Below are positions 20,839 through 49,578 of a DNA stretch of 64,000 bases, piece after piece (positions within the stretch are counted from its first letter, which is position 1; each line of letters begins with the position of its first letter). The stretch lies in IMG/VR virus record IMGVR_UViG_3300006143_000285. One strand, 5' to 3'. This stretch comes from a virus. Taxonomy: Duplodnaviria; Heunggongvirae; Uroviricota; Caudoviricetes. The translations under genes were made by a program, and so were the position numbers. The notes under the pieces are model-generated. The model had not been told where the DNA came from and made no database searches. It saw only the letters and a list, made by a program, of their open reading frames with translations.

Positions 20839-22755
20839 GTGACAATGACTGAACAAAAACTAATCTATAGTCAACATCTGAGATGCTTGGCAAGATTGTT
20901 GAAGAACACTGCACAGACAGCTGTCTTCACCTATCTGTTTGATGAGTATCTTTTATTGTTGCGACAAGGAATTTCAAATCCGGGCTTCATTGTGTCCAAT
21001 TCGCAAATCGCTGAAAACACAGGGGTGGATCGCGGACGAGTGGAAATATATCTGCGAAAACTTGAAGAACTTGGGCTGATTGTCATATCTGGCAAGAATG
21101 TCTTTGTAAAGGCTGATTATCTGTTTGCGGTTTCGTCATTGTTGTACGAAAAGAAAACTGCAATCGAGAAAAGAGCTGTGTGTACGGCTTTTCAGAATAA
21201 TGATATTGCCACTCTGAACAAATTGGGATTAACAGAGTGCAAAGAGGCTGAACGCTTCTTTTCTAACATGCCGGGGAGCATAGAGTCGAAAAAACAGCAG
21301 AATGTAGAAAATCCCGCAACTCTGTCGAATATTCTACAAACTGATGAATATCCCGCAGAGTTGCTGGATATGCGACATATTTTTAAGGCTGTATATGATG
21401 TATTTTCGACAAAATCTGAGTTTGTTGCACGTTTTTACGACAAAAATGCTGAAAAAACTACACAAGAAACAGTCTTAAAACTCGCCGACAGCATTTATGA
21501 TGAAAATACAGCATCTTCACTCTCAGAAGTTATCAAAAGACTGATGGATTTTCTACGCTTTGGAGTGTCGAAAATCCCGCATTTTGTTGAATTTCCTACA
21601 CCAGTAATAAATATAGAGAAAGAAAATAATAAAAGAAATATCCAGAGCGAAGCTCTGGTTAAAGAAAGGGGGGAACAAAACGAAAAAGACGACAACGAAA
21701 TCGAAGATGACGGACTAACAAGAGAGGAACGTTCTCAGAAAAGAAAAAATATTTTTGAACAGTTTAGAACTGTTGAAGCTGTTGAGATGACTCAAGCTGT
21801 TTCAACAGTTAGGAACTCTTCAGAAATTTCTTCAAGAAGAAAAAGCTGGTCTTACCCTATGCTTCCAGTTGATGAAGTTGACAGAATAATCTCAGATGTT
21901 TCTTATGCAGCTTCCAGTCCTCTTAAACTTTTCATCAATACTGTTTGGTGGACTCTTTATGACAGTCTCCAGAATTCTGAAGATTTTGATGAGGATGAAG
22001 AACTCTCAGAAGATTTCGATATTGAAGGCTACGGCTATCCAATCGAGGACTTCCAGCAAAACATTCTTGAAACAGCCTACGAAGAAGTCCAAGGTAATAT
22101 GGAAAAGGGTTGTGTAGAGTTGGAAGGTGGAGAATCAATTCCAGTAACCTTTACCGAAATGTTCTCAGTTGACTTGCTGGATAAAATTTTCAAGTGGGAA
22201 CAGACAGACTTGAGCCATCAGGAATCTGTCTATAAGATTTCCAAGTCCGGCATCTTTGATGTGACAGCAGAAAGAGTAGAGCGGGCCAACCAACCTCAGA
22301 CAAGAGAAGAAAAAAGAACGGCAGTAAAGGACAGTCTGGAATATATGACCAAACTTTACCTAATTCACAACACCGGTCATGCTTATCTCAGGCTTCTCAC
22401 TCCAATCGAGAAACTGGCAGCAAACTTCATCATAGCTTACATGAAGCCGGATAAGAGAGAAGGCGATCCTATCCTACGATTCTCAGCTGATCCGGAAAAG
22501 GAAAACGTAACTTCGGAAGGAGCCATCAACAAATGGGGATGGAAACAAGTGGTTTTGAAGGTTACTGATGCCGGTTATACCACACAGGAATTCCTCAGCT
22601 GCCTTCTTAGCAACAAAGGACCTACCCAATATGAACAACTCATCATCCAGCCTTGTATGTTCTTTGCAGAGGGTATCAGGACTCTAAACAAAGTTCATGG
22701 AGACGAGAGCATCATAGACTCGATAACGATAGAATCTCTCAGAGAAGATGAATAA
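20839..22755 (+). CDS. large early protein with N-terminal wHTH-like region and acidic middle (replication initiator candidate)
   Basis: 638 aa. N-terminus IAENTGVDRGRVEIYLRKLEELGLIV has wHTH character. D/E-rich middle segment. Lies next to the iteron-bearing ORF-free region. Confidence 0.3.
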   Translation: MTMTEQKLIYSQHLRCLARLLKNTAQTAVFTYLFDEYLLLLRQGISNPGFIVSNSQIAENTGVDRGRVEIYLRKLEELGLIVISGKNVFVKADYLFAVSSLLYEKKTAIEKRAVCTAFQNNDIATLNKLGLTECKEAERFFSNMPGSIESKKQQNVENPATLSNILQTDEYPAELLDMRHIFKAVYDVFSTKSEFVARFYDKNAEKTTQETVLKLADSIYDENTASSLSEVIKRLMDFLRFGVSKIPHFVEFPTPVINIEKENNKRNIQSEALVKERGEQNEKDDNEIEDDGLTREERSQKRKNIFEQFRTVEAVEMTQAVSTVRNSSEISSRRKSWSYPMLPVDEVDRIISDVSYAASSPLKLFINTVWWTLYDSLQNSEDFDEDEELSEDFDIEGYGYPIEDFQQNILETAYEEVQGNMEKGCVELEGGESIPVTFTEMFSVDLLDKIFKWEQTDLSHQESVYKISKSGIFDVTAERVERANQPQTREEKRTAVKDSLEYMTKLYLIHNTGHAYLRLLTPIEKLAANFIIAYMKPDKREGDPILRFSADPEKENVTSEGAINKWGWKQVVLKVTDAGYTTQEFLSCLLSNKGPTQYEQLIIQPCMFFAEGIRTLNKVHGDESIIDSITIESLREDE

Positions 22756-22758
22756 CAG

Positions 22759-22800
22759 AAACGACCACTCACGAAATGTCAGTGGTCGTTTAATTTTATC
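22759..22800. terminator. bidirectional terminator between convergent genes
   Basis: aacgaccact..agtggtcgtt, 10-bp stem with flanking A/T runs, lying between the plus-strand 20839 gene and the minus-strand 22796 gene. Confidence 0.7.
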
Positions 22801-23737
22801 TTGGTTCACTTGAAAGAGTGGCGAGATAGTTTCGGATAATCTCAGTAATTTGGCCGACAACTTCCAGCCCGCTTGCATTTGATGTGAAGTAATTTCCAGC
22901 GAGAAGGCGGTTGGTTGATGTTTGATTGTTTTTTTCGATGTCTGACACCAGTTGGAACTTGTCGTTAATGTACCAGTATTTCTTGCCTTCCTCGACCCTC
23001 ATCGTTATAGGCTCAACCCTATGTCGGTTCTGGTTCCAAGTCCTACCATAACGCTCCAGTTCTCTGTTCAGTCTTCGTTGACACGATATGCCGTTCATTT
23101 TGCTTTGTCGTTTGTCTCCATTATCCATCGGCTCAAACCAGAAGTCATGGAGATTTACAATACCTTTTTCGTGCATTGAAAAACCACACGCTTTTGTTTC
23201 GTAGATGTAGTAGCAATAAAGTTCAACCTCTCCCGATAATTGATCCACAGTGCGGATTACACCCAGCCCCTTTATCCCTTTGCCATGAAAGATTACCCGG
23301 TCATTGATTTCAGGAATATGTTTGCAGATTAAGTCGTAGGTCTTCCAGCTGAATTGGAGCTTATTTCTCAGCATTACTCCACGACAGCCGTGTATTTCAT
23401 CCTCAGAGGCCGTTTTTAAGCTCTCTGTGTCGATTTTGGAGTGTTCGGTAAGGATTTTATCGTCCGAGAGCCTTCCGACGATTGTAGCGGCCTTAAAATC
23501 GCATTTTCCGATAATCACCGTGCTGTCTTCATACTTTGCGATGTCACCGCTGCCAAATCCTGTCTCATACCATTGGATGAATTCGGAAGCTGTAATGCCG
23601 CTCTCAGGATTAAATTCGGCATTGACGGTAAATTCAGCCTTGTCTTTACAAAAAGCTGAAATCATTTCCCAGTCTGTTCGGGAACGATATGAATTAGATG
23701 CCAAAAAACTTTGGATCTGTAGGTCGGTTTTAGCCAT
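22796..23737 (-). CDS. hypothetical protein
   Basis: 313-aa ORF transcribed divergently from the ORF-free region. Confidence 0.4.
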   Translation of the reverse strand: MAKTDLQIQSFLASNSYRSRTDWEMISAFCKDKAEFTVNAEFNPESGITASEFIQWYETGFGSGDIAKYEDSTVIIGKCDFKAATIVGRLSDDKILTEHSKIDTESLKTASEDEIHGCRGVMLRNKLQFSWKTYDLICKHIPEINDRVIFHGKGIKGLGVIRTVDQLSGEVELYCYYIYETKACGFSMHEKGIVNLHDFWFEPMDNGDKRQSKMNGISCQRRLNRELERYGRTWNQNRHRVEPITMRVEEGKKYWYINDKFQLVSDIEKNNQTSTNRLLAGNYFTSNASGLEVVGQITEIIRNYLATLSSEPR

Positions 23738-24473
23738 ATAGCGAGATATACTAAATCAATTTAAGCGCAAATTTACGCACATTTTCGAGAATCGTAAAAT
23801 TTGATTGGAAAAATTCCGAAATTCTCAGGAAATCAGACTTAGAAATTTGGGGGTCCGGAAAAAATCGGAAAAGCATATAGGGGAGTTTTTATATTTCGAC
23901 CAAATGATATTTTTAACACCAAATCTGAAGGGTCGAATATGGTTCGCATAATAATGTGTGAATTTGCCCATTTTTAAGCCCTCTGAGCGAGTTTTGAACC
24001 CTTGGTAATATAAATGGTCATCTGAGGTGAGAAAGGCCGCCAGACGAAAGATATGGAAGTTGTATGAATTTTGATGACTGAAAGAGCTTGACTTACCCTG
24101 AAAATGAGACTTAAAAAATCGGGGTCGGCAATATATATGGAATCCGCACCAGATGGTACACCCTCCCTTTTATTATTTTATTGATTATCAAGTAGTTAAG
24201 ACTTTCACTTACTACAAAAGTGAAAGTATATCATTGATTAACAGCTGTTTAGATGCCAATTTTAGTCAGTTAACATTTGATAAGCAAAAACCTTAATTTT
24301 TGTTAAGAATTAACTTCGCTATTGCATAGACTCCAGTCTTTTTGTATATCGTGCGTGTATGTGTGCGTGTTGCGTACCTTAATAAGCCAAAAAGAGATTT
24401 ATGCTAATTTGTTGACAATCAATAAATTACATATCTACATAATGTAATATGTTAAATTATTTAACAAATAGAC

Positions 24474-24500
24474 CTATTTGGTACAATTTCCTAAATTTGC
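24474..24500 (+). promoter_or_regulatory. Bacteroidetes-type promoter (TTTG, then TAAATTTG after 19 nt)
   Basis: Sequence ctatTTGgtacaatttccTAAATTTGc. Confidence 0.4.
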
Positions 24501-24568
24501 TATTTGCCTAATACCCAACCACTTACAAAATACAAAGTGTTAAAGAAATGTTAAACCACAGAATTTAT

Positions 24569-24599
24569 TTTGTGGGGTCAAATATTAGCCCTAACTTTG
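24569..24599 (+). promoter_or_regulatory. Bacteroidetes-type promoter (-33 TTTG, -7 TAACTTTG) firing into the ORF-free repeat region
   Basis: tatTTTGtggggtcaaatattagcccTAACTTTGc. No ORF of 60 aa or more follows for about 800 nt. Confidence 0.45.
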
Positions 24600-24698
24600 C
24601 ATTGTCAAGTTAAAACAACAACAACGACAACCACAAATTAGCAAACTGGCTACTTAGTGCAAAGTAGTATTGCGGTGCAGGGAAAGCAATCCAAAACA

Positions 24699-25347
24699 CG
24701 CCCTAACTATGCGAATTATTAACTAAATTGTGTAACAACTTTAACACCCAAATTACACCCAAACAAAAGCGCGTAAAAGCGTGAAATCGTAACACATACA
24801 TAGCAACGGAAAGCGAAAGCGAAAACCGTTCTGAATAGGTGCAGATATGTGCCTAAACAGGAAAGAAACACCCCTGACTGTAATGCTCAGTTATCAAATA
24901 TGCTCGTGCAAATCGTCGTCGGGAACAGGGGGTGCTATATGTAAGCGCAAACAAAATGTGCATATAGCGAGGTCGAAAAACGTGTCACAGCGTGTTGTGC
25001 CAATATTATGCGCCATTGGTATCTAACAACGAATTGGAAGCACTGAAACGCGAATTGTGCCAAAGGTATGCCCTGTTGCAACCTTATGATTAGAGGCGGT
25101 CAGTGAGTGGCGAAAAACTGTGCCATAACTATGCGGAAACGCTTCGATTATTGCCCTTGTGTAATAATTTTAGGAACTGTTGTATAGTGACCAAAGTCCC
25201 CTGTGGAAGTGCCGAAAGTGCGCTTAAAGCGAGAGCGAGGGAGTGCCACACCTATGCGAAACGTCTTAGGAGTAAGTAATGCCGTAATTGCCTGAAATGG
25301 CTTGGTGTGAAACTATCGCAAGTGGTTTGCCCTTTGAAACATCGCAT
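24699..25347. repeat. iteron-like direct repeats (GTGCCA-N3-4-[C]TATGCG[R]AA) with one inverted copy; candidate origin or regulator-binding array
   Basis: Copies near 24699, 24996, 25056, 25118 and 25241, with three consecutive copies about 61 bp apart. An inverted copy (cgcatagg) lies at about 25336. Also present: GCGAAA x3 at 24801..24821 and an 8-bp inverted repeat gctatatg..catatagc at 24934..24968. Confidence 0.5.
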
Positions 25348-25544
25348 AGGTAGGAAAGCGCGAAATCTGAACACGATTTTGCGGAGTGTAGAGGGTGAAA
25401 TCTGCACTCTGCAATCTTATGAACTTAGACCGTGCCATTCTCCGGAATGGTGTGGAAACTCCCTATATTGGTGAGTGTGGCAGGTTCGACTCCTGTCACG
25501 GTCACAATGCGCTATTGCAGAAAATGCCTAAAAACCGAAAAATT

Positions 25545-26084
25545 ATGGCAACTATCACTCGTTACAACAGTGTTCAATTCTCCGAAGTGTCTAACAACCA
25601 GCTTGCCGGTGTCGCTCTTGTGTACCGCTCCGTGCGCAAAGACGGAACTGTCACTGAAACGTGCATCCACCTTGGAGGCGCGGAGTTCGTGCCTGAAAAC
25701 GGAACTGCCGATGAAGTGTTCCGTGTGTGGAAAAACGCAATCAAAATCCATTGGGACGCAAAGCGTTCCGAGGCAGGGCTTAAAGTAGACAATGGCGGCA
25801 TTGCCGTTAAACTCCGTGCCAGCACTCCGGCTGAAATCATCGTGCGTAAAACCGACGGCAAAACCGTTCTCCGTTGGGACGCTGAAAGCTCAATCTTTGC
25901 TCGTGTAGGCATTATGCCGACCGCCAAGGATTTGCAGGAACTGACCCGCGACTACAAAAAGAAAATGCACAAAGCGGCTAAAGCGTCGTTTGACGCCCTC
26001 AAAATGAAATTTGAGTTTGAGGCTGCTGTGCCCTCAACCGTGGAAGTGCCTGCTGAAGCTGAAAAGTCTGAGGCTGCTGCATAA
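25545..26084 (+). CDS. hypothetical protein; start uncertain (alternative ATG at 25524)
   Basis: The ORF track starts at 25395, but that stretch overlaps the repeat region. A more likely start is MATITRY or MPKNRK. C-terminus is Ala/Glu-rich. Confidence 0.35.
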   Translation: MATITRYNSVQFSEVSNNQLAGVALVYRSVRKDGTVTETCIHLGGAEFVPENGTADEVFRVWKNAIKIHWDAKRSEAGLKVDNGGIAVKLRASTPAEIIVRKTDGKTVLRWDAESSIFARVGIMPTAKDLQELTRDYKKKMHKAAKASFDALKMKFEFEAAVPSTVEVPAEAEKSEAAA

Positions 26085-36438: not shown

Positions 36439-37695
36439 ATGGATTACATCTTAGAAAAATTCTTTGAACCTGAACGATGGATATATGCTATCGAGAAAGG
36501 TGTCGGCAAGAGCATCGCTAAGAGCGAGCTTTATCAGTTGACAAAGCCGGAAACACGAGTTCAGATGTATGAAGCAATCCGTGATGGCCGCTACGAAATA
36601 GCCCCACCGCATACAGCACAAATTCCTAAGGACAATGGAGAATATCGAACCGTGTATATCAATGAACCGGCAGATCGCATACTTCTCAGTATCACAAATG
36701 ACTTGTTGTTTGAACTGATGCCTGAGATGATACACCCACATTGCCAATCATATCAGAAAGGTATTGGCTGTGGGAAAATTGTTCAGGAAGCGTCACGCAA
36801 AATATGTGAAACCCAAGGCGATGTGATTGGCTGGAAAGCTGATTTAAGTAAATATTTTGACAGCGTTCCCCTTCGTTTCATTGATGCGGCTTTTGATTCA
36901 GTAGAAGCAAAGTATGGTCATTCTTCATTGATTGATGTGCTTAGGAAATACTATCATTCTGATTTATACTTCGACACTGATGGGCAACTTAAAAGCGCAT
37001 ATCAATCACTTAAACAGGGCTGTTCAGTCGCCTCGTGGCTTGCTGATGTCATTCTTTATGACATTGATGAAGAATTAGCTAAACTTGATGGCTACGATGT
37101 CAGATATTCAGATGACATTTTGTTCATCGGAACCGATTACGAGGTTGCAATGAATGTGTTGAAAGATAAACTGGCTGAGAAAGAAATGACGCTCAACCCC
37201 AAGAAAGTCGAATACCTTACTCATACCCGATGGTTTAAGTTTCTCGGATATTCCATCAAAGGTTCTGACATTTCATTAAGCGGGACCAGAATTAAGAAAT
37301 TCCAGAAAGAAATCGAGGCTCGCACCATCAAAGCAAAAGGTGCAACACTGAAGAAAGCCATCAACGCTGTCAATCGCTTTCTTTATAAAGGAAATGGAGA
37401 ATATAGCTGGGCCACTCAAATTCTGCCGGTATGCAACGTTAAGAAAGACATTCAGGAACTTAACAAATTTGTGATGGATTGTCTGAAAGCGGTTGCTACA
37501 GGAAAGAAGAAAGTTGGTGGTCTCGGTTATGTCGCCACTCAATCAGAAGGATGTATTTCACGAGGTATAGGACGCAACGTTAAAGCAAATCGCTCTAAGA
37601 TTGTAACAATTGATGGGTATTTAACCATCAATTGTATGCAAAACGCAATGGTTGCCAGTCGTGAAGCGTACAAAACGTTGGTTGCTACTTTATAA
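36439..37695 (+). CDS. reverse transcriptase (group-II-intron-like / retron-like class; not DGR-type by motif 4)
   Basis: RT motifs present: RT0/1 (GRYEIAPPHTAQIPKDNGEYRTVYINEPADRIL), motif 3 (KADLSKYFDSVP), motif 4 (QGCSVASWLADV), motif 5 (RYSDDILFIG, a YxDD box), motif 7 (FKFLGYSI). No maturase X or endonuclease domain. 418 aa. Confidence 0.85.
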   Translation: MDYILEKFFEPERWIYAIEKGVGKSIAKSELYQLTKPETRVQMYEAIRDGRYEIAPPHTAQIPKDNGEYRTVYINEPADRILLSITNDLLFELMPEMIHPHCQSYQKGIGCGKIVQEASRKICETQGDVIGWKADLSKYFDSVPLRFIDAAFDSVEAKYGHSSLIDVLRKYYHSDLYFDTDGQLKSAYQSLKQGCSVASWLADVILYDIDEELAKLDGYDVRYSDDILFIGTDYEVAMNVLKDKLAEKEMTLNPKKVEYLTHTRWFKFLGYSIKGSDISLSGTRIKKFQKEIEARTIKAKGATLKKAINAVNRFLYKGNGEYSWATQILPVCNVKKDIQELNKFVMDCLKAVATGKKKVGGLGYVATQSEGCISRGIGRNVKANRSKIVTIDGYLTINCMQNAMVASREAYKTLVATL

Positions 37696-41860: not shown

Positions 41861-43091
41861 CAAGACTTAATCTGACAATTACGGATAAAAACATTACCTT
41901 TGTAAAAAGAAAAGATTAAGCCATGACCACATCAGAAAAAGTCATCAAGAACAAACTGGGACTGTTGGAACTGTCCCAGCAACTGGGCAACGTGTCGCGC
42001 GCCTGCAAGATAATGGGCTACAGCCGCGACAGCTTCTACCGCTTCAAGGAACTATACGAGCAGGGCGGAGAACTCGCGTTGCAGGAGATATCGCGCCGCA
42101 AGCCGGTGATAAAGAACCGAGTTGAGGAGCGCATAGAGAACGCCGTCGTGCAGATGGCCTTCGAGAACCCGGCACTCGGACAGGTGCGCGTGTCCAACGA
42201 ACTGCGCAAGAGGGGCATAATGGTCTCGCAGGGAGGGGTGCGCTCCATATGGCTGCGCCACGATCTGGAGACTTTTCAGAAACGCCTGAAAGCACTGTCG
42301 GCCAAAGTCGAGCAGGAAGGGATAATCCTTGACGAAACGCAGGTGGCGGCTCTGGAGAAGGCAAAGGCCGAGAAACAGGCACACGGCGAGATCGAGACGT
42401 TCCACCCCGGCTTCCTTGTGGCCCAGGACACATATTATGTGGGTCATATCAAGGGCGTGGGACACATCTACCAGCAGACCGTGATAGACACATATTCCAA
42501 AATCGGCTTCGCCAAACTGTACGACCGTAAGAATGCCCTTGTCGCCGCCGACATGCTCAACGACCGCGTCGTGCCTTTCTTTGAGCAGCACGACCTCAAG
42601 GTGATGAGGATGCTCACCGACCGGGGAACGGAGTACTGCGGCAACCGTGAGACCCACGAGTTCGAGCTGTACCTCGCAATCGAGGACATAGACCACTCAA
42701 GGATAAAGGCCAAAAGCCCGCAGACCAACGGCATCTGCGAGAGGTTCAACAGAACCGTACAGAACGAGTTCTACGCCATTGCGTTCCGCAAGAAGATATA
42801 CACATCCATCGATCAGCTTCAGGCTGACCTCGACGCGTGGATGAGCCACTACAACACCGAGAGAACCCACTCCGGAAAATACTGCTTTGGCAAAACCCCT
42901 ATGCAGACTTTCATCGAGGGTATCGCCGTGGCAAGGAGGTACGACATACAGCACCAGGGGCTACACTCGCAAGAGGGGGAGACTCAAAATATCTCCACCT
43001 CTTGCGCAACTGAACCCAAATCACTAAATTTGTCAACACAATCTGACAATTTTTTCTCGGTGAAATAATTTATTTGTCAGATGAAGTCTTG
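41861..43091 (+). mobile_element. IS481-family-like insertion sequence with imperfect terminal inverted repeats
   Basis: Left end caagacttaatctgacaa (41861..41878). Right end tttgtcagatgaagtcttg (43073..43091), which is the reverse complement caagacttcatctgacaa, a 17/18 match. Internal GC is clearly higher than the flanking phage DNA. Confidence 0.75.
41923..43068 (+). CDS. DDE transposase (IS481-family-like; rve integrase-core)
   Basis: 381 aa. N-terminal HTH, then DDE core containing LTDRGTEYCG and ICERFNRTVQNEFY motifs typical of IS481 and IS3 rve-domain transposases. Confidence 0.8.
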   Translation: MTTSEKVIKNKLGLLELSQQLGNVSRACKIMGYSRDSFYRFKELYEQGGELALQEISRRKPVIKNRVEERIENAVVQMAFENPALGQVRVSNELRKRGIMVSQGGVRSIWLRHDLETFQKRLKALSAKVEQEGIILDETQVAALEKAKAEKQAHGEIETFHPGFLVAQDTYYVGHIKGVGHIYQQTVIDTYSKIGFAKLYDRKNALVAADMLNDRVVPFFEQHDLKVMRMLTDRGTEYCGNRETHEFELYLAIEDIDHSRIKAKSPQTNGICERFNRTVQNEFYAIAFRKKIYTSIDQLQADLDAWMSHYNTERTHSGKYCFGKTPMQTFIEGIAVARRYDIQHQGLHSQEGETQNISTSCATEPKSLNLSTQSDNFFSVK

Positions 43092-49038: not shown

Positions 49039-49110
49039 TGCGGGATAGAGCAGTGGTAGCTTGCTGGGCTCATTACCCAGAGGTCGTAGGTTCGAGTCCT
49101 ACTCCCGCTA
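49039..49110 (+). tRNA. tRNA-Met(CAT), initiator-like
   Basis: Cloverleaf with anticodon loop CTCATTA. GGG/CCC in the anticodon stem and a 1:72 mismatch, both initiator features. Confidence 0.7.
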
Positions 49111-49168
49111 CAAAGGCACTCACCAATATAGGGAGCCAGCTGAGAGGTTCACCACTCTCAGCAAAATC

Positions 49169-49252
49169 GGGCTACTGGCGAAATGGTAGACGCGCTGGTC
49201 TTAGGAACCAGTATCGAAAGGTGTGCAGGTTCGAGTCCTGCGTGGCCCACCA
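49169..49252 (+). tRNA. tRNA-Leu(TAG)
   Basis: Long variable arm, anticodon loop CTTAGGA. CCA is encoded. Confidence 0.7.
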
Positions 49253-49268
49253 ACAAATTCTAAAAGAT

Positions 49269-49481
49269 ATGGACACAGTATTCAACAACCGTCGTGATTC
49301 AGTGATTAGATCACTGCAAGACAATCAATCTGAAATCGCATTGCTTAATGCCGATATTGACAACAAAATTGCTGCACATAAGGCTGAGATAGCGATGCTA
49401 AAGCTCCAAAAGAAGGAGTTGAAACAGACTAAAGTACGTCACGGTTGGCTGCTGTCCATGTTAATTCGGTGGCTTAAATAA
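49269..49481 (+). CDS. small coiled-coil protein between tRNA genes
   Basis: 70-aa in-frame tail (MDTVFNNRRDSV...) of the 49020 track ORF. Its upstream part overlaps two tRNAs and is discarded. Confidence 0.3.
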   Translation: MDTVFNNRRDSVIRSLQDNQSEIALLNADIDNKIAAHKAEIAMLKLQKKELKQTKVRHGWLLSMLIRWLK

Positions 49482-49489
49482 ACTTCTAA

Positions 49490-49573
49490 GCTCCGGTGGC
49501 GGAATGGTAGACGCGAGGGACTTAAAATCCCTTGGTCATAGTGACCGTCTGGGTTCGACTCCCAGTCGGAGCA
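49490..49573 (+). tRNA. tRNA-Leu(TAA)
   Basis: Long variable arm, anticodon loop CTTAAAA. Confidence 0.7.
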
Positions 49574-49578
49574 CATAA

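Follow-up and report, generated by a model that had tools for sequence, protein, structure and literature searches.

What resides in the long ORF-free gap of this stretch of tailed-phage DNA, in which direct repeats recur at nearly regular distances: a replication origin, an operator array or an RNA gene? The window (by which we mean the whole 64,000-nt stretch analysed) contains no ORF between positions 23738 and 25544 (1.8 kb), and the gap is flanked by genes at 22796-23737 (-) and 25545-26084 (+). An ORF-free region between divergent genes had thus been recognized correctly in an earlier, sequence-only reading, with a length of 1.6 kb. The same reading regarded the repeats as initiator-binding iterons next to an unwinding element, or as operators, and offered a long 5' leader or ncRNA as a fallback. 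It was the fallback that proved right, as the repeats lie within a transcribed, covarying RNA structure. The segment ~24604-25504 (+) is a conserved RNA gene, located behind a Bacteroidetes promoter, with abundant compensatory changes and a tRNA-like end. As the best explanation, held with considerable confidence, we propose a structured Bacteroidales tailed-phage ncRNA of ~0.9 kb which carries this tRNA-like end, is processed and acts in trans. The locus is composed of the following features:

24095..24235 (+), non-coding element, conserved and separate from the RNA; it comprises a conserved block, a TTGATTATCAA palindrome and the palindrome GACTTTCACTT-N7-AAGTGAAAGT
24569..24599 (+), Bacteroidetes sigma-A type promoter read from the sequence: -33 TTTG at 24569-24572, 19-nt spacer, -7 TAACTTTG at 24592-24599
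24604..24715 (+), variable 5' transcript segment, C/A-rich and G-poor; relatives carry other sequence here (TTATCCTACATATAACGCTCAAT)
24716..24761 (+), conserved A/U/C-rich block, mostly unpaired, with AAACAAAAG at its end (from alignments)
24762..25427 (+), multi-domain structured RNA core, including a nested GAAA-loop hairpin (24806-24829) and a variable covarying hairpin (24934-24968)
25380..25413 (+), 13-bp GNRA hairpin with a conserved GGGUGAAA loop, directly 5' of the tRNA-like element (covariation in 43 sequences)
25428..25504 (+), tRNA-like element
25508..25544 (+), small covarying hairpin UGCG-CUAU-UGCA, GAAAA and A-rich leader to the ATG (pair counts)
25545..26084 (+), gene for a conserved 179-aa protein, which always follows the RNA

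The promoter had been called at this very position before, and its place is kept among relatives. A regular-expression scan detected TTTG-N17-22-TAnnTTTG in 11 of the 15 non-canonical loci, 770-980 nt before the ATG, and in all 14 aligned loci the promoter was visible by eye, the -7 box being weaker in the canonical clade; the aligned block TAnCTTTGCAnnGTCAAG is conserved. Transcription would start from it at ~24604-24607. A second promoter proposed earlier (24476/24492) has a spacer of only 12 nt and is not conserved. Downstream of the variable segment, 40 nt of the block at 24716-24761 are invariant among the window and two related loci (L001 and L002), and AAACAAAAG occurs also at the end of the region modelled in Rfam as Bacteroidales-2, when read on the window's + strand.

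In the five-sequence alignment of the window clade, RNAalifold predicted 226 pairs, 58 of them with changes on both sides (23.8±3.3 in shuffled alignments, 0/500; 6-18 in slid controls), and 91.6% were paired compared with 84.7% after shuffling; shared ancestry can inflate covariation among five sequences. For the central domain, eleven sequences in a model-fitted alignment gave double changes at 45/76 pairs (vs 25.7±2.9). Across 43 sequences from all clades, aligned without fitting to a structure, 91.4% vs 64.2% were paired and 126 double-change cells were counted vs 39.2±6.6. In the same set (43 distinct sequences, MAFFT), all six counted pairs of the 13-bp hairpin at 25380-25413 changed on both sides. 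Single-sequence folding gave z = -3.25.

As for the repeats themselves, perfect copies of GTGCCANNNNTATGCG are located at 24997, 25120 and 25243, and one with a single mismatch at 25057, always on the + strand. GTGCCA-N4-TATGCG is thus present three times exactly and once nearly so within 262 nt of one strand, downstream of the promoter. By arithmetic, 64 kb should contain a 12-base pattern ~0.008 times; with up to two mismatches allowed, the whole window contained 8 matches vs 3.85±1.98 in shuffles. The spacings of 60, 63 and 123 nt are near whole helical turns; ~61 bp had been given earlier for three consecutive copies. At least five direct copies had been claimed, of which these four stood; the fifth, "copy A" at 24698-24716, is degenerate, specific to the window's phage and situated in the segment that relatives replace. 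Other elements were described accurately, namely the inverted copy (CGCATAGG at 25343-25350), the threefold GCGAAA tract (GGAAAGCGAAAGCGAAAA at 24808-24825) and the 8-bp inverted repeat (GCTATATG/CATATAGC at 24934-24941 / 24961-24968, with a 19-nt loop). In the RNA, the four copies take part in pairing as follows:

24997..25012 (+), copy B: a hairpin has GUUGUGCCAA as 5' strand and UUGGU...CAAC (to ~25032) as its partner, with UAUGCGCC in the loop
25057..25072 (+), copy C: GCCA is an internal loop, and AAGGU forms a helix with ACCUU (25081-25085) that closes off AUGCCCUGUUGCA as a loop
25120..25135 (+), copy D: UGCCAU is a 3' strand with GUGGCG (25106-25111), and ACUAUGC a 5' strand with GUAUAGU (~25178-25186)
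25243..25258 (+), copy E: CUAUGCGA and the "inverted copy" UCGCAUAG (25342-25350) form a helix

The pairs change in a compensatory manner. The helices of copy B change from CCAAU/AUUGG to CCGG/CCGG and CCAC/GUGG (helices 16/17 of the five-sequence and 2/3 of the 11-sequence alignment). That of copy C (helices 20 and 7, respectively) shows the pair states AU:6 GC:5 and GC:5 UA:3 CG:1; its hairpin corresponds to positions 214-256 of a covariance model of the + strand version of the Rfam region (CM R1, matching at 25053-25095), and was matched by another model, CM R2, in the canonical locus L035 (2523-2563). With copy D, double changes were present at 5/6 pairs of helix 8 and 4/7 pairs of helix 9 in the 11-sequence alignment, and with copy E (helix 29, inverted repeat I11/I12) GC:3 AU:2 and a change of G-C to G·U were found in the five-sequence alignment. 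Copies D and E form a duplicated module in which UAUGCG pairs with a downstream YGCAUAG. The GUGCCA-N4-UAUGCG "iterons" are therefore strands of helices and helix junctions in RNA. Since changes in their variable spacers and flanks are matched by changes in complementary partners far away, selection acts on RNA pairing and not on a protein-binding DNA word; spacers and half-sites alike covary with distal partners (helices 16-21 and 29; helices 2-9), and as conserved protein-binding words the repeats thus fail. Absence from related phages had been named as a sign against the earlier reading; the repeats are conserved there, but as RNA.

The 3' end of the RNA is built from the following parts:

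25428..25504 (+), acceptor stem of the tRNA-like element: GACC(GUG) at 25428-25434 pairs with (CAC)GGUC at 25497-25503
25435-25450 (+), variable hairpin arm
25458-25476 (+), second arm, with the conserved loop CUAUAUUGGU
25477-25499 (+), T stem and loop, the 7-nt loop being UUCGACU
25504 (+), discriminator A25504, followed by CAAU, not CCA

The element thus possesses a 7-nt T loop, a 12-bp coaxial stack of acceptor and T stems and a terminal discriminator base. Its T arm is 99.5% paired in the 43 sequences, with GC/CG/AU/UA swaps, and the distance from T loop to discriminator is 12 nt in 25 of the 36 parsed representatives and 9-11 nt in the other 11. There is no anticodon arm, tag-peptide reading frame or 3' CCA, the internal arms being the variable hairpin and a hairpin with a YUAYUUUGGU loop. 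ARAGORN reported no tRNA or tmRNA at 25.4-25.5 kb; the tRNA-Sec covariance model gave 22.7 bits (E 0.16, threshold 47), and with the Rfam tRNA, tmRNA and YrlA models the element stayed under every threshold. The acceptor 5' strand and both internal arms were aligned inconsistently in the MAFFT alignments (A8 and A9), and the statistics were for this reason restricted to the T arm, the GNRA hairpin and the simple 12-nt parse. RNAalifold predicted just the T arm and the post-element hairpin on A8, and the 5' acceptor partner could not be located reliably by automatic search. An attP site, i.e. a fragment of a host tRNA, was rejected, as the full element including its 5' strand is present and covaries across clades. 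Gene callers wrongly stretch an ORF over such an element.

The RNA is followed after ~40 nt by the 179-aa gene, with no intrinsic terminator between them, and no terminator-like site was found on either strand of 23700-25700. No family or fold match was obtained for the protein; some of its homologs contain a C-terminal DnaJ domain. The primary transcript would read through into this gene. Host RNase P could cut 5' of the tRNA-like domain, at ~25427/25428, and an RNase Z-type activity could trim after A25504; both cuts would set the 3' end of the large RNA and free a translatable mRNA. The mature RNA is probably processed in this way, with its 3' end set by tRNA-processing enzymes, and probably trans-acting; it may serve as a scaffold, or form a complex with the protein encoded next to it, in an early phase of infection or induction.

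The same genomic slot is occupied in other phages by Bacteroidales-2 RNA (RF02943), a family of Weinberg et al. 2017 (PMC5737381) with no function assigned; a literature search on Bacteroidales-2 brought up no paper dealing with that RNA. RF02943 matched with 246-439 bits in the same gap of 18 loci, Bacteroides and Alistipes prophages among them, upstream of homologs of the 179-aa protein (40-49% identity). It gave no match in window positions 23700-25650 even at E<=10, indicating that the central domain has strongly diverged, and its gathering threshold (204.3 bits) was not reached anywhere in the window. Rfam as a whole, at gathering and E-value thresholds, returned only tRNAs and chance matches for the window. 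A DNA search of INPHARED with the region yielded no match, and a scan of IMG/VR with a 17-nt pattern for the most part chance matches.

The two forms are nevertheless joined by intermediates. Metagenomes yielded 278 loci in all. An HMM of the canonical clade matches the 3' ~310 nt of the window's RNA collinearly (E 1e-8), an HMM of the window clade covers the intermediates L033, L123 and L128 end to end, and CM R2 recovers L076, L078, L073 and L030 at full length. Matches of CM R1 were motif-level only (E 0.18-10 in the window clade, ~2 in the window) and, like those of CM R2 at this level, collinear and on the + strand only; being so weak, they could not demonstrate membership of the central domain at the level of covariance models. 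Both forms lie in Bacteroidales phage or prophage DNA and have in common the UGCCA-N4-UAUGC motifs, the CCNGUU hairpin and the AAACAAAAG boundary, and the 3' flank and tRNA-like end are homologous. The Rfam model comprises only the central ~390 of ~850-950 nt, leaving out the stretch next to the promoter as well as the 3' domain and tRNA-like element. The window RNA corresponds by synteny and transitive homology to the prophage RNA modelled in part as Bacteroidales-2 and is, judged from sequence, a divergent and much longer relative of it.

The Rfam model was moreover built on the strand opposite to the one favoured here. In the 43 sequences, G·U prevailed over A·C, at 50:8 for the GNRA hairpin and 14:0 for the T arm, which fixes the + strand at the 3' domain. 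Consensus energy was -340.9 (+) vs -290.5 (-) and single-sequence MFE -271.7 (+) vs -237.6 (-), and the promoter is on the + strand. Rfam's own helices showed wobble-type departures of 28:7 for the + strand, two invariant terminal G·U pairs being set aside. In the central domain, repeats included, strand asymmetry was weak (G·U:A·C 2:1 in pairs predicted on both strands), and RNAalifold energies of the canonical Rfam region were nearly equal (E+ -156.7, E- -156.8). For the Rfam orientation, a hairpin followed by UUUUGUUU (window ~24753-24790) is weakly terminator-like, and was judged weak since the terminator scan found none; a minus-strand promoter TTTG-N20-TTTCTTTG was also judged weak, its -33 element not being conserved and its -7 box lacking TA. 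Bacteroidales-2 may well be annotated on the wrong strand in Rfam.

Could the repeats still be bound as double-stranded DNA, either by an initiator, for example the 638-aa winged-helix protein of 20839-22755, which would then open the AT-rich DNA to the left, or by an early regulator of early transcription? Their arrangement on one strand near whole helical turns would fit, as would the AT-rich tract just upstream (GC 0.27-0.32), the weak wHTH and "replication initiation O-like" match of the 638-aa protein (E 2.5e-5) and a broad minimum of cumulative GC skew at ~14-24 kb. However, the N4 spacers and flanks covary with distant segments, unlike protein-binding words, the pairing context differs for each copy, and the spacing is 84-85 nt in L030 and canonical relatives. 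Furthermore, the region exceeds its flanks in GC content and is preceded by a conserved promoter, its homologous prophage region is a curated structured-RNA family, and the skew, proposed earlier as a check, shows no inflection centred at the repeats and is non-diagnostic for an origin. We therefore consider the iteron or operator reading very improbable. A better operator or origin candidate might be the element at 24095-24235 in the AT-rich left half (23.8-24.6 kb). It is part of the module but outside the described RNA, occurs once in the window, and gave nhmmer matches in all clades at the same relative position. Even less credence can be given to the RNA being a replication pre-primer or origin transcript, akin to RNA II of ColE1 or to the mitochondrial primer RNAs that RNases of tRNA type cleave, with an origin at or just past the tRNA-like element. 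A promoter-driven structured RNA does adjoin the O-like gene and AT-rich DNA, and DnaJ/DnaK remodel initiation complexes in lambda, which the J domain of some homologs of the downstream protein recalls. No skew inflection is centred here, though, and the same RNA-protein module is present in differing phage backbones, including Mu-F type prophages, without the O-like gene.

The whole structure might instead be a cis-acting 5' leader of the 179-aa gene, sensing the state of tRNA processing, a protein or a metabolite and controlling translation or stability of the mRNA, with no separate trans product. In each of the ~45 distinct loci the RNA keeps a fixed distance and orientation relative to the ATG, no terminator precedes the gene, and conservation runs on through the small hairpin and A-rich leader. 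With 0.9 kb and ~40 helices, the structure would however far exceed the bacterial leaders known so far; it is driven by a strong promoter of its own and includes a tRNA-like module of processing type, and its canonical form is filed by Rfam as an sRNA gene. A purely cis-acting leader thus appears unlikely to us, while a dual role as cis leader and trans RNA may apply and is compatible with these objections. Going beyond the processed, trans-acting RNA that we prefer, it can be speculated that Bacteroidales gut phages possess a new class-level "ornate" RNA of ~0.9 kb, that Bacteroidales-2 is its inverted central fragment, and that either of two further roles applies. The tRNA-like domain, more than a processing signal, might be CCA-tailed or charged, or act as a decoy or recruiter of tRNA-handling enzymes, the ribosome or tRNA-targeting defences; alternatively, the RNA might assemble with the fold-orphan, sometimes J-domain-containing 179-aa protein into a new phage ribonucleoprotein. 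Taken jointly, these suppositions are rather doubtful.

Large, intricately folded RNAs of bacteria and phages are rare, and GOLLD, ROOL and OLE have recently proved structurally extraordinary and functionally opaque. Here, a gut-Bacteroidales phage RNA family turns out to be about twice as long as its database model and to carry an integral tRNA-like 3' domain and a fixed partner protein gene, with a divergent subfamily in large tRNA-rich phages that escapes current models. It also follows that repeated RNA modules can mimic iterons. Ends, strand and domains now define concrete constructs, and culturable lysogens with the canonical form exist for testing, namely Alistipes putredinis DSM 17216 (NZ_DS499577.1, ~992-997 kb), Bacteroides graminisolvens DSM 19988, Bacteroides neonati MS4 and Butyricimonas muris; a further locus is that of LUJS01000050.1 (142-148 kb).

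Iteron origins such as lambda ori and those of plasmids share with the window clustered one-strand direct repeats, AT-rich DNA and an adjoining winged-helix "O-like" gene. The likeness is formal only (at least three direct, phased copies adjoining AT-rich DNA); the window repeats are subject to selection for RNA pairing and form part of a structured RNA that is transcribed. The tRNA-like element resembles those of MALAT1-mascRNA, tmRNA and YrlA in its 12-bp acceptor/T-stem stack, 7-nt UUCRANY T loop and discriminator, and in terminating a long RNA on its 3' side, so that ends could be set there by RNase P or RNase Z. It differs from them in the lack of an encoded CCA, anticodon arm, G3·U70 and tag reading frame, and its processing is putative. 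GOLLD and ROOL (RF01998, RF03087) are multi-domain bacterial and phage RNAs of ~580-800 nt, often found in prophages and beside tRNAs (PMC5737381), for which oligomeric cages have been reported (bioRxiv 10.1101/2024.12.08.627333). With their covariance models, the window remained without a match at E<=10, as did 10 related loci at E<=1, and they differ from the window RNA in phylum and architecture. The window RNA is likewise a large phage RNA, of ~0.9 kb, and has a tRNA-like module attached to it; this module belongs to the RNA itself as a covarying 3' domain and is not a tRNA gene next to it.

The direct repeat GTGCCANNNNTATGCG is real: it has three perfect copies, at 24997, 25120 and 25243, and a single-mismatch copy at 25057, always on the + strand, at spacings of 60, 63 and 123 nt. 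The inverted copy (25343-25350), the GCGAAA tract (24808-24825), the 8-bp inverted repeat (24934-24968) and the promoter (TTTG at 24569-24572, 19-nt spacer, TAACTTTG at 24592-24599) were likewise found where the sequence-only reading had placed them, and no ORF longer than 59 codons interrupts the gap between the genes 22796-23737 (-) and 25545-26084 (+), the latter encoding a 179-aa protein. A proposed fifth copy (24698) proved to be degenerate and lies within a segment replaced in relatives; the second proposed promoter lacks conservation, and its spacer is 12 nt long.

Through homologs of the 179-aa protein (n = 44, 99-45% identity), about 125 loci were collected from IMG/VR, Logan, ENA, JGI, GTDB genomes and metagenomes, yielding 45 RNA sequences after clustering at 95% identity. 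A gene-poor gap of 1.6-2.7 kb lies 5' of the homolog in all loci, and its conserved part is the final ~0.85-0.95 kb, from a promoter-like TTTG/TAnnTTTG to a tRNA-like element. Outside the canonical clade (loci matching Rfam RF02943), the promoter consensus was present in 11 of 15 loci by regular expression and in 14 of 14 aligned loci by eye; in the canonical clade the -7 box is weaker. Contig LUJS01000050.1 (MAG 'Bacteroidales bacterium M8') is at least 95% identical to the window across the RNA region, its 179-aa protein sharing 99% identity. A search of INPHARED (deposited phage genomes) returned no similar sequence.

The window is part of a tailed phage and carries genes for a portal, a tape-measure protein, an NAD ligase, a reverse transcriptase and 20 tRNAs. 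The tRNA array (49039-52822, 20 genes) includes two tRNA-Phe (anticodons aaa and gaa) and two tRNA-Met, and a NAMPT gene lies at 53241-54755. The reverse-transcriptase gene, possibly part of a diversity-generating retroelement, and an IS200/605-type transposase (36439-37695 and 41923-43068) are not linked to the RNA. A 638-aa protein (20839-22755) has a winged helix at its N terminus and weakly matches PHROG 'replication initiation O-like'; its gene is syntenic in window-type phages and missing from Mu-F-type prophages with the same RNA module.

The non-coding RNA that had been offered as an alternative is supported by a covarying structure downstream of the promoter. Among five close relatives (82-63% identity), the RNAalifold consensus comprised 226 pairs, with 91.6% of cells paired (84.7% in shuffles) and both-side changes at 58 pairs, compared to 23.8±3.3 in shuffled alignments (0/500) and 6-18 with partners slid. 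With a covariance model (R2) built on the central domain, which bears the repeats, four further distant members were retrieved at full length; in the resulting 11-row alignment, which is biased towards structure because it was fitted to the model, 45 of 76 pairs had both-side changes (against 25.7±2.9). Across all clades, 43 distinct sequences were also aligned with plain MAFFT; in this alignment the GGGUGAAA-capped hairpin and the T arm of the tRNA-like element were 91.4% paired (against 64.2±1.6) and had 126 double-change cells (against 39.2±6.6). According to the five-relative consensus and the R2 alignment, the repeat copies pair as follows.

24997, + strand: copy B, GUUGUGCCAA, 5' strand of a hairpin; relatives have CCGG/CCGG or CCAC/GUGG in place of CCAAU/AUUGG
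25057, + strand: copy C, spacer AAGGU paired with ACCUU (AUGUU/AACAU in window-clade locus L002), closing the conserved loop AUGCCCNGUUGCA
25120, + strand: copy D, UGCCAU paired with upstream GUGGCG, and ACUAUGC with downstream GUAUAGU (4 of 7 pairs double-changed)
25243, + strand: copy E, CUAUGCGA paired with the inverted copy UCGCAUAG; A-U to G-C exchange

Each repeat half-site is thus a strand of a helix, and the 8-bp inverted repeat is a covarying hairpin, variable in sequence. Copies D and E, nearly identical across 23 nt in window-clade locus L001, look like a duplicated junction module. Since the half-sites are covarying helix strands, selection acts on complementarity and not on a DNA word, so that the reading of the repeats as an origin or operator array is unsupported. 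True iterons would account for the phased direct copies, but the spacing of 60-63 nt corresponds to the length of one RNA module, and equivalent motifs lie 84-85 nt apart in the more distant locus L030 and the canonical clade; we regard iterons as very improbable. Any operator or origin of this locus is more likely to reside in the left half (23.8-24.6 kb), whose counterpart is non-coding in every locus and which contains the following features.

24095-24235: conserved element, 350-450 nt upstream of the RNA promoter, with a AAAAYGAGACTTRAAAAAT..GGGG..ATATATGGAATCCGCACC..ACCCTCCC block and T run and two palindromes, TTGATTATCAA and the perfect TTTCACTT-N7-AAGTGAAA
24350-24378: alternating purine-pyrimidine (GT/GC)n tract, GTGCGTGTATGTGTGCGTGTTGCGTAC
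24450-24466: palindrome TGTTAAAT-T-ATTTAACA, ~130 nt 5' of the -7 box, conserved among window-clade loci (L001, L017, L002)

The element at 24095-24235 is conserved across all clades, including Bacteroides and Alistipes prophages, at equal relative position, and the loop of its perfect palindrome is inverted between relatives. It occurs once in the window, with a degenerate copy at 23829-23885, had no match in Rfam, and may be an operator, origin or packaging site. The GC-skew curve has a broad, non-diagnostic minimum at 14-24 kb. In most related loci, tracts resembling (GT/GC)n precede the RNA promoter; they caused spurious mir-297 matches. The palindrome at 24450-24466 is likely a regulator-binding site.

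As for the strand, G·U exceeded A·C by 50:8 in the 3' hairpin and by 14:0 in the T arm. Consensus folding of the window clade gave -340.9 for + versus -290.5 for -, and single-sequence folding of the window RNA -271.7 versus -237.6. For the Rfam region alone, RNAalifold energies were equal on both strands; in its helices, across 17 canonical sequences, wobble-type departures favoured + by 28:7 when two invariant terminal G·U 'pairs' were left out and stood at 28:35 with them. A + transcript must cross the central domain, as there is no internal promoter or terminator; scanning both strands revealed no terminator-like site. The 3' domain is almost certainly on the + strand, and the central domain probably so.

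The RNA ends in a structure resembling tRNA.

25428-25504, + strand: tRNA-like element with acceptor stem, variable hairpin, second arm and T arm

Its second arm has the conserved loop YUAYUUUGGU and its T arm a 7-nt loop, UUCGACU. The loop-to-discriminator distance is 12 nt in 25 of 36 parsed representatives (9-11 nt in the other 11), and the 12-nt distance matches the 5+7 arrangement of tRNA; unlike tRNA, the element has NCAAU instead of a 3' CCA, and it scored under all tRNA/tmRNA thresholds tried. Between the element and the ATG lie a small covarying hairpin and an A-rich leader; across loci, the T loop is 60-84 nt from the ATG. The ORF list and public gene calls (P0001 and P0007; 229 and 223 aa) stretch the 179-aa gene 50 codons upstream over the tRNA-like element (25395-25544); the family alignment shows that these calls are wrong and that the start is ATG 25545. 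The protein has a confident structure model (pLDDT 81), no family or fold match was found for it, and in some lineages a J domain is fused to its homolog. Further tRNA-like or tRNA matches (24.8 and 32.4 bits) directly follow the homolog in two loci (L018 3568-3615, L027 3596-3665).

We propose that transcription from the -7 box at 24592 would produce a single precursor including the 179-aa mRNA, and that the tRNA-like domain would recruit RNase P and RNase Z-type enzymes, whose cuts would fix the 3' end of the large RNA and release the mRNA. The large RNA might then act in trans, possibly with the 179-aa protein. Besides true iterons, the competing readings are a purely cis-acting leader of the 179-aa gene and an RNA pre-primer.

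In an unrelated phage (IMGVR_UViG_2811995127_000001; L006 2640-2975 / L007 5525-5860), a 335-nt ORF-free region upstream of a non-homologous protein terminates in the same T arm, 3' acceptor strand and CAAT (34 nt, 94% identity to the window). Non-coding RNAs with tRNA-like ends may occur more widely.

The corresponding gap in Bacteroides, Alistipes, Dysgonomonas and Butyricimonas genomes matches RF02943 (Bacteroidales-2) with 246-439 bits. The RF02943 model spans only ~390 central nt and is on the strand opposite to protein, promoter and tRNA-like element; on the + strand its consensus holds the repeat motif (UUGCCAAUGUUAUGCC, AUGCCAUAAGUCUGCC) and GAAA loops. The window did not match RF02943 at E<=10, and our + strand model of the Rfam region (R1) gave motif-level matches only (e.g. 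25053-25095, E ~2). A collinear profile match covers the window's 3' ~310 nt (E 1e-8), and the window-clade profile covers intermediate loci end to end. Synteny, the 3' match, these intermediates and the shared promoter and tRNA-like end indicate homology. We treat the window RNA as a diverged variant of Bacteroidales-2, not a member by the Rfam criterion; for this known family the extent is corrected, and probably the strand too.
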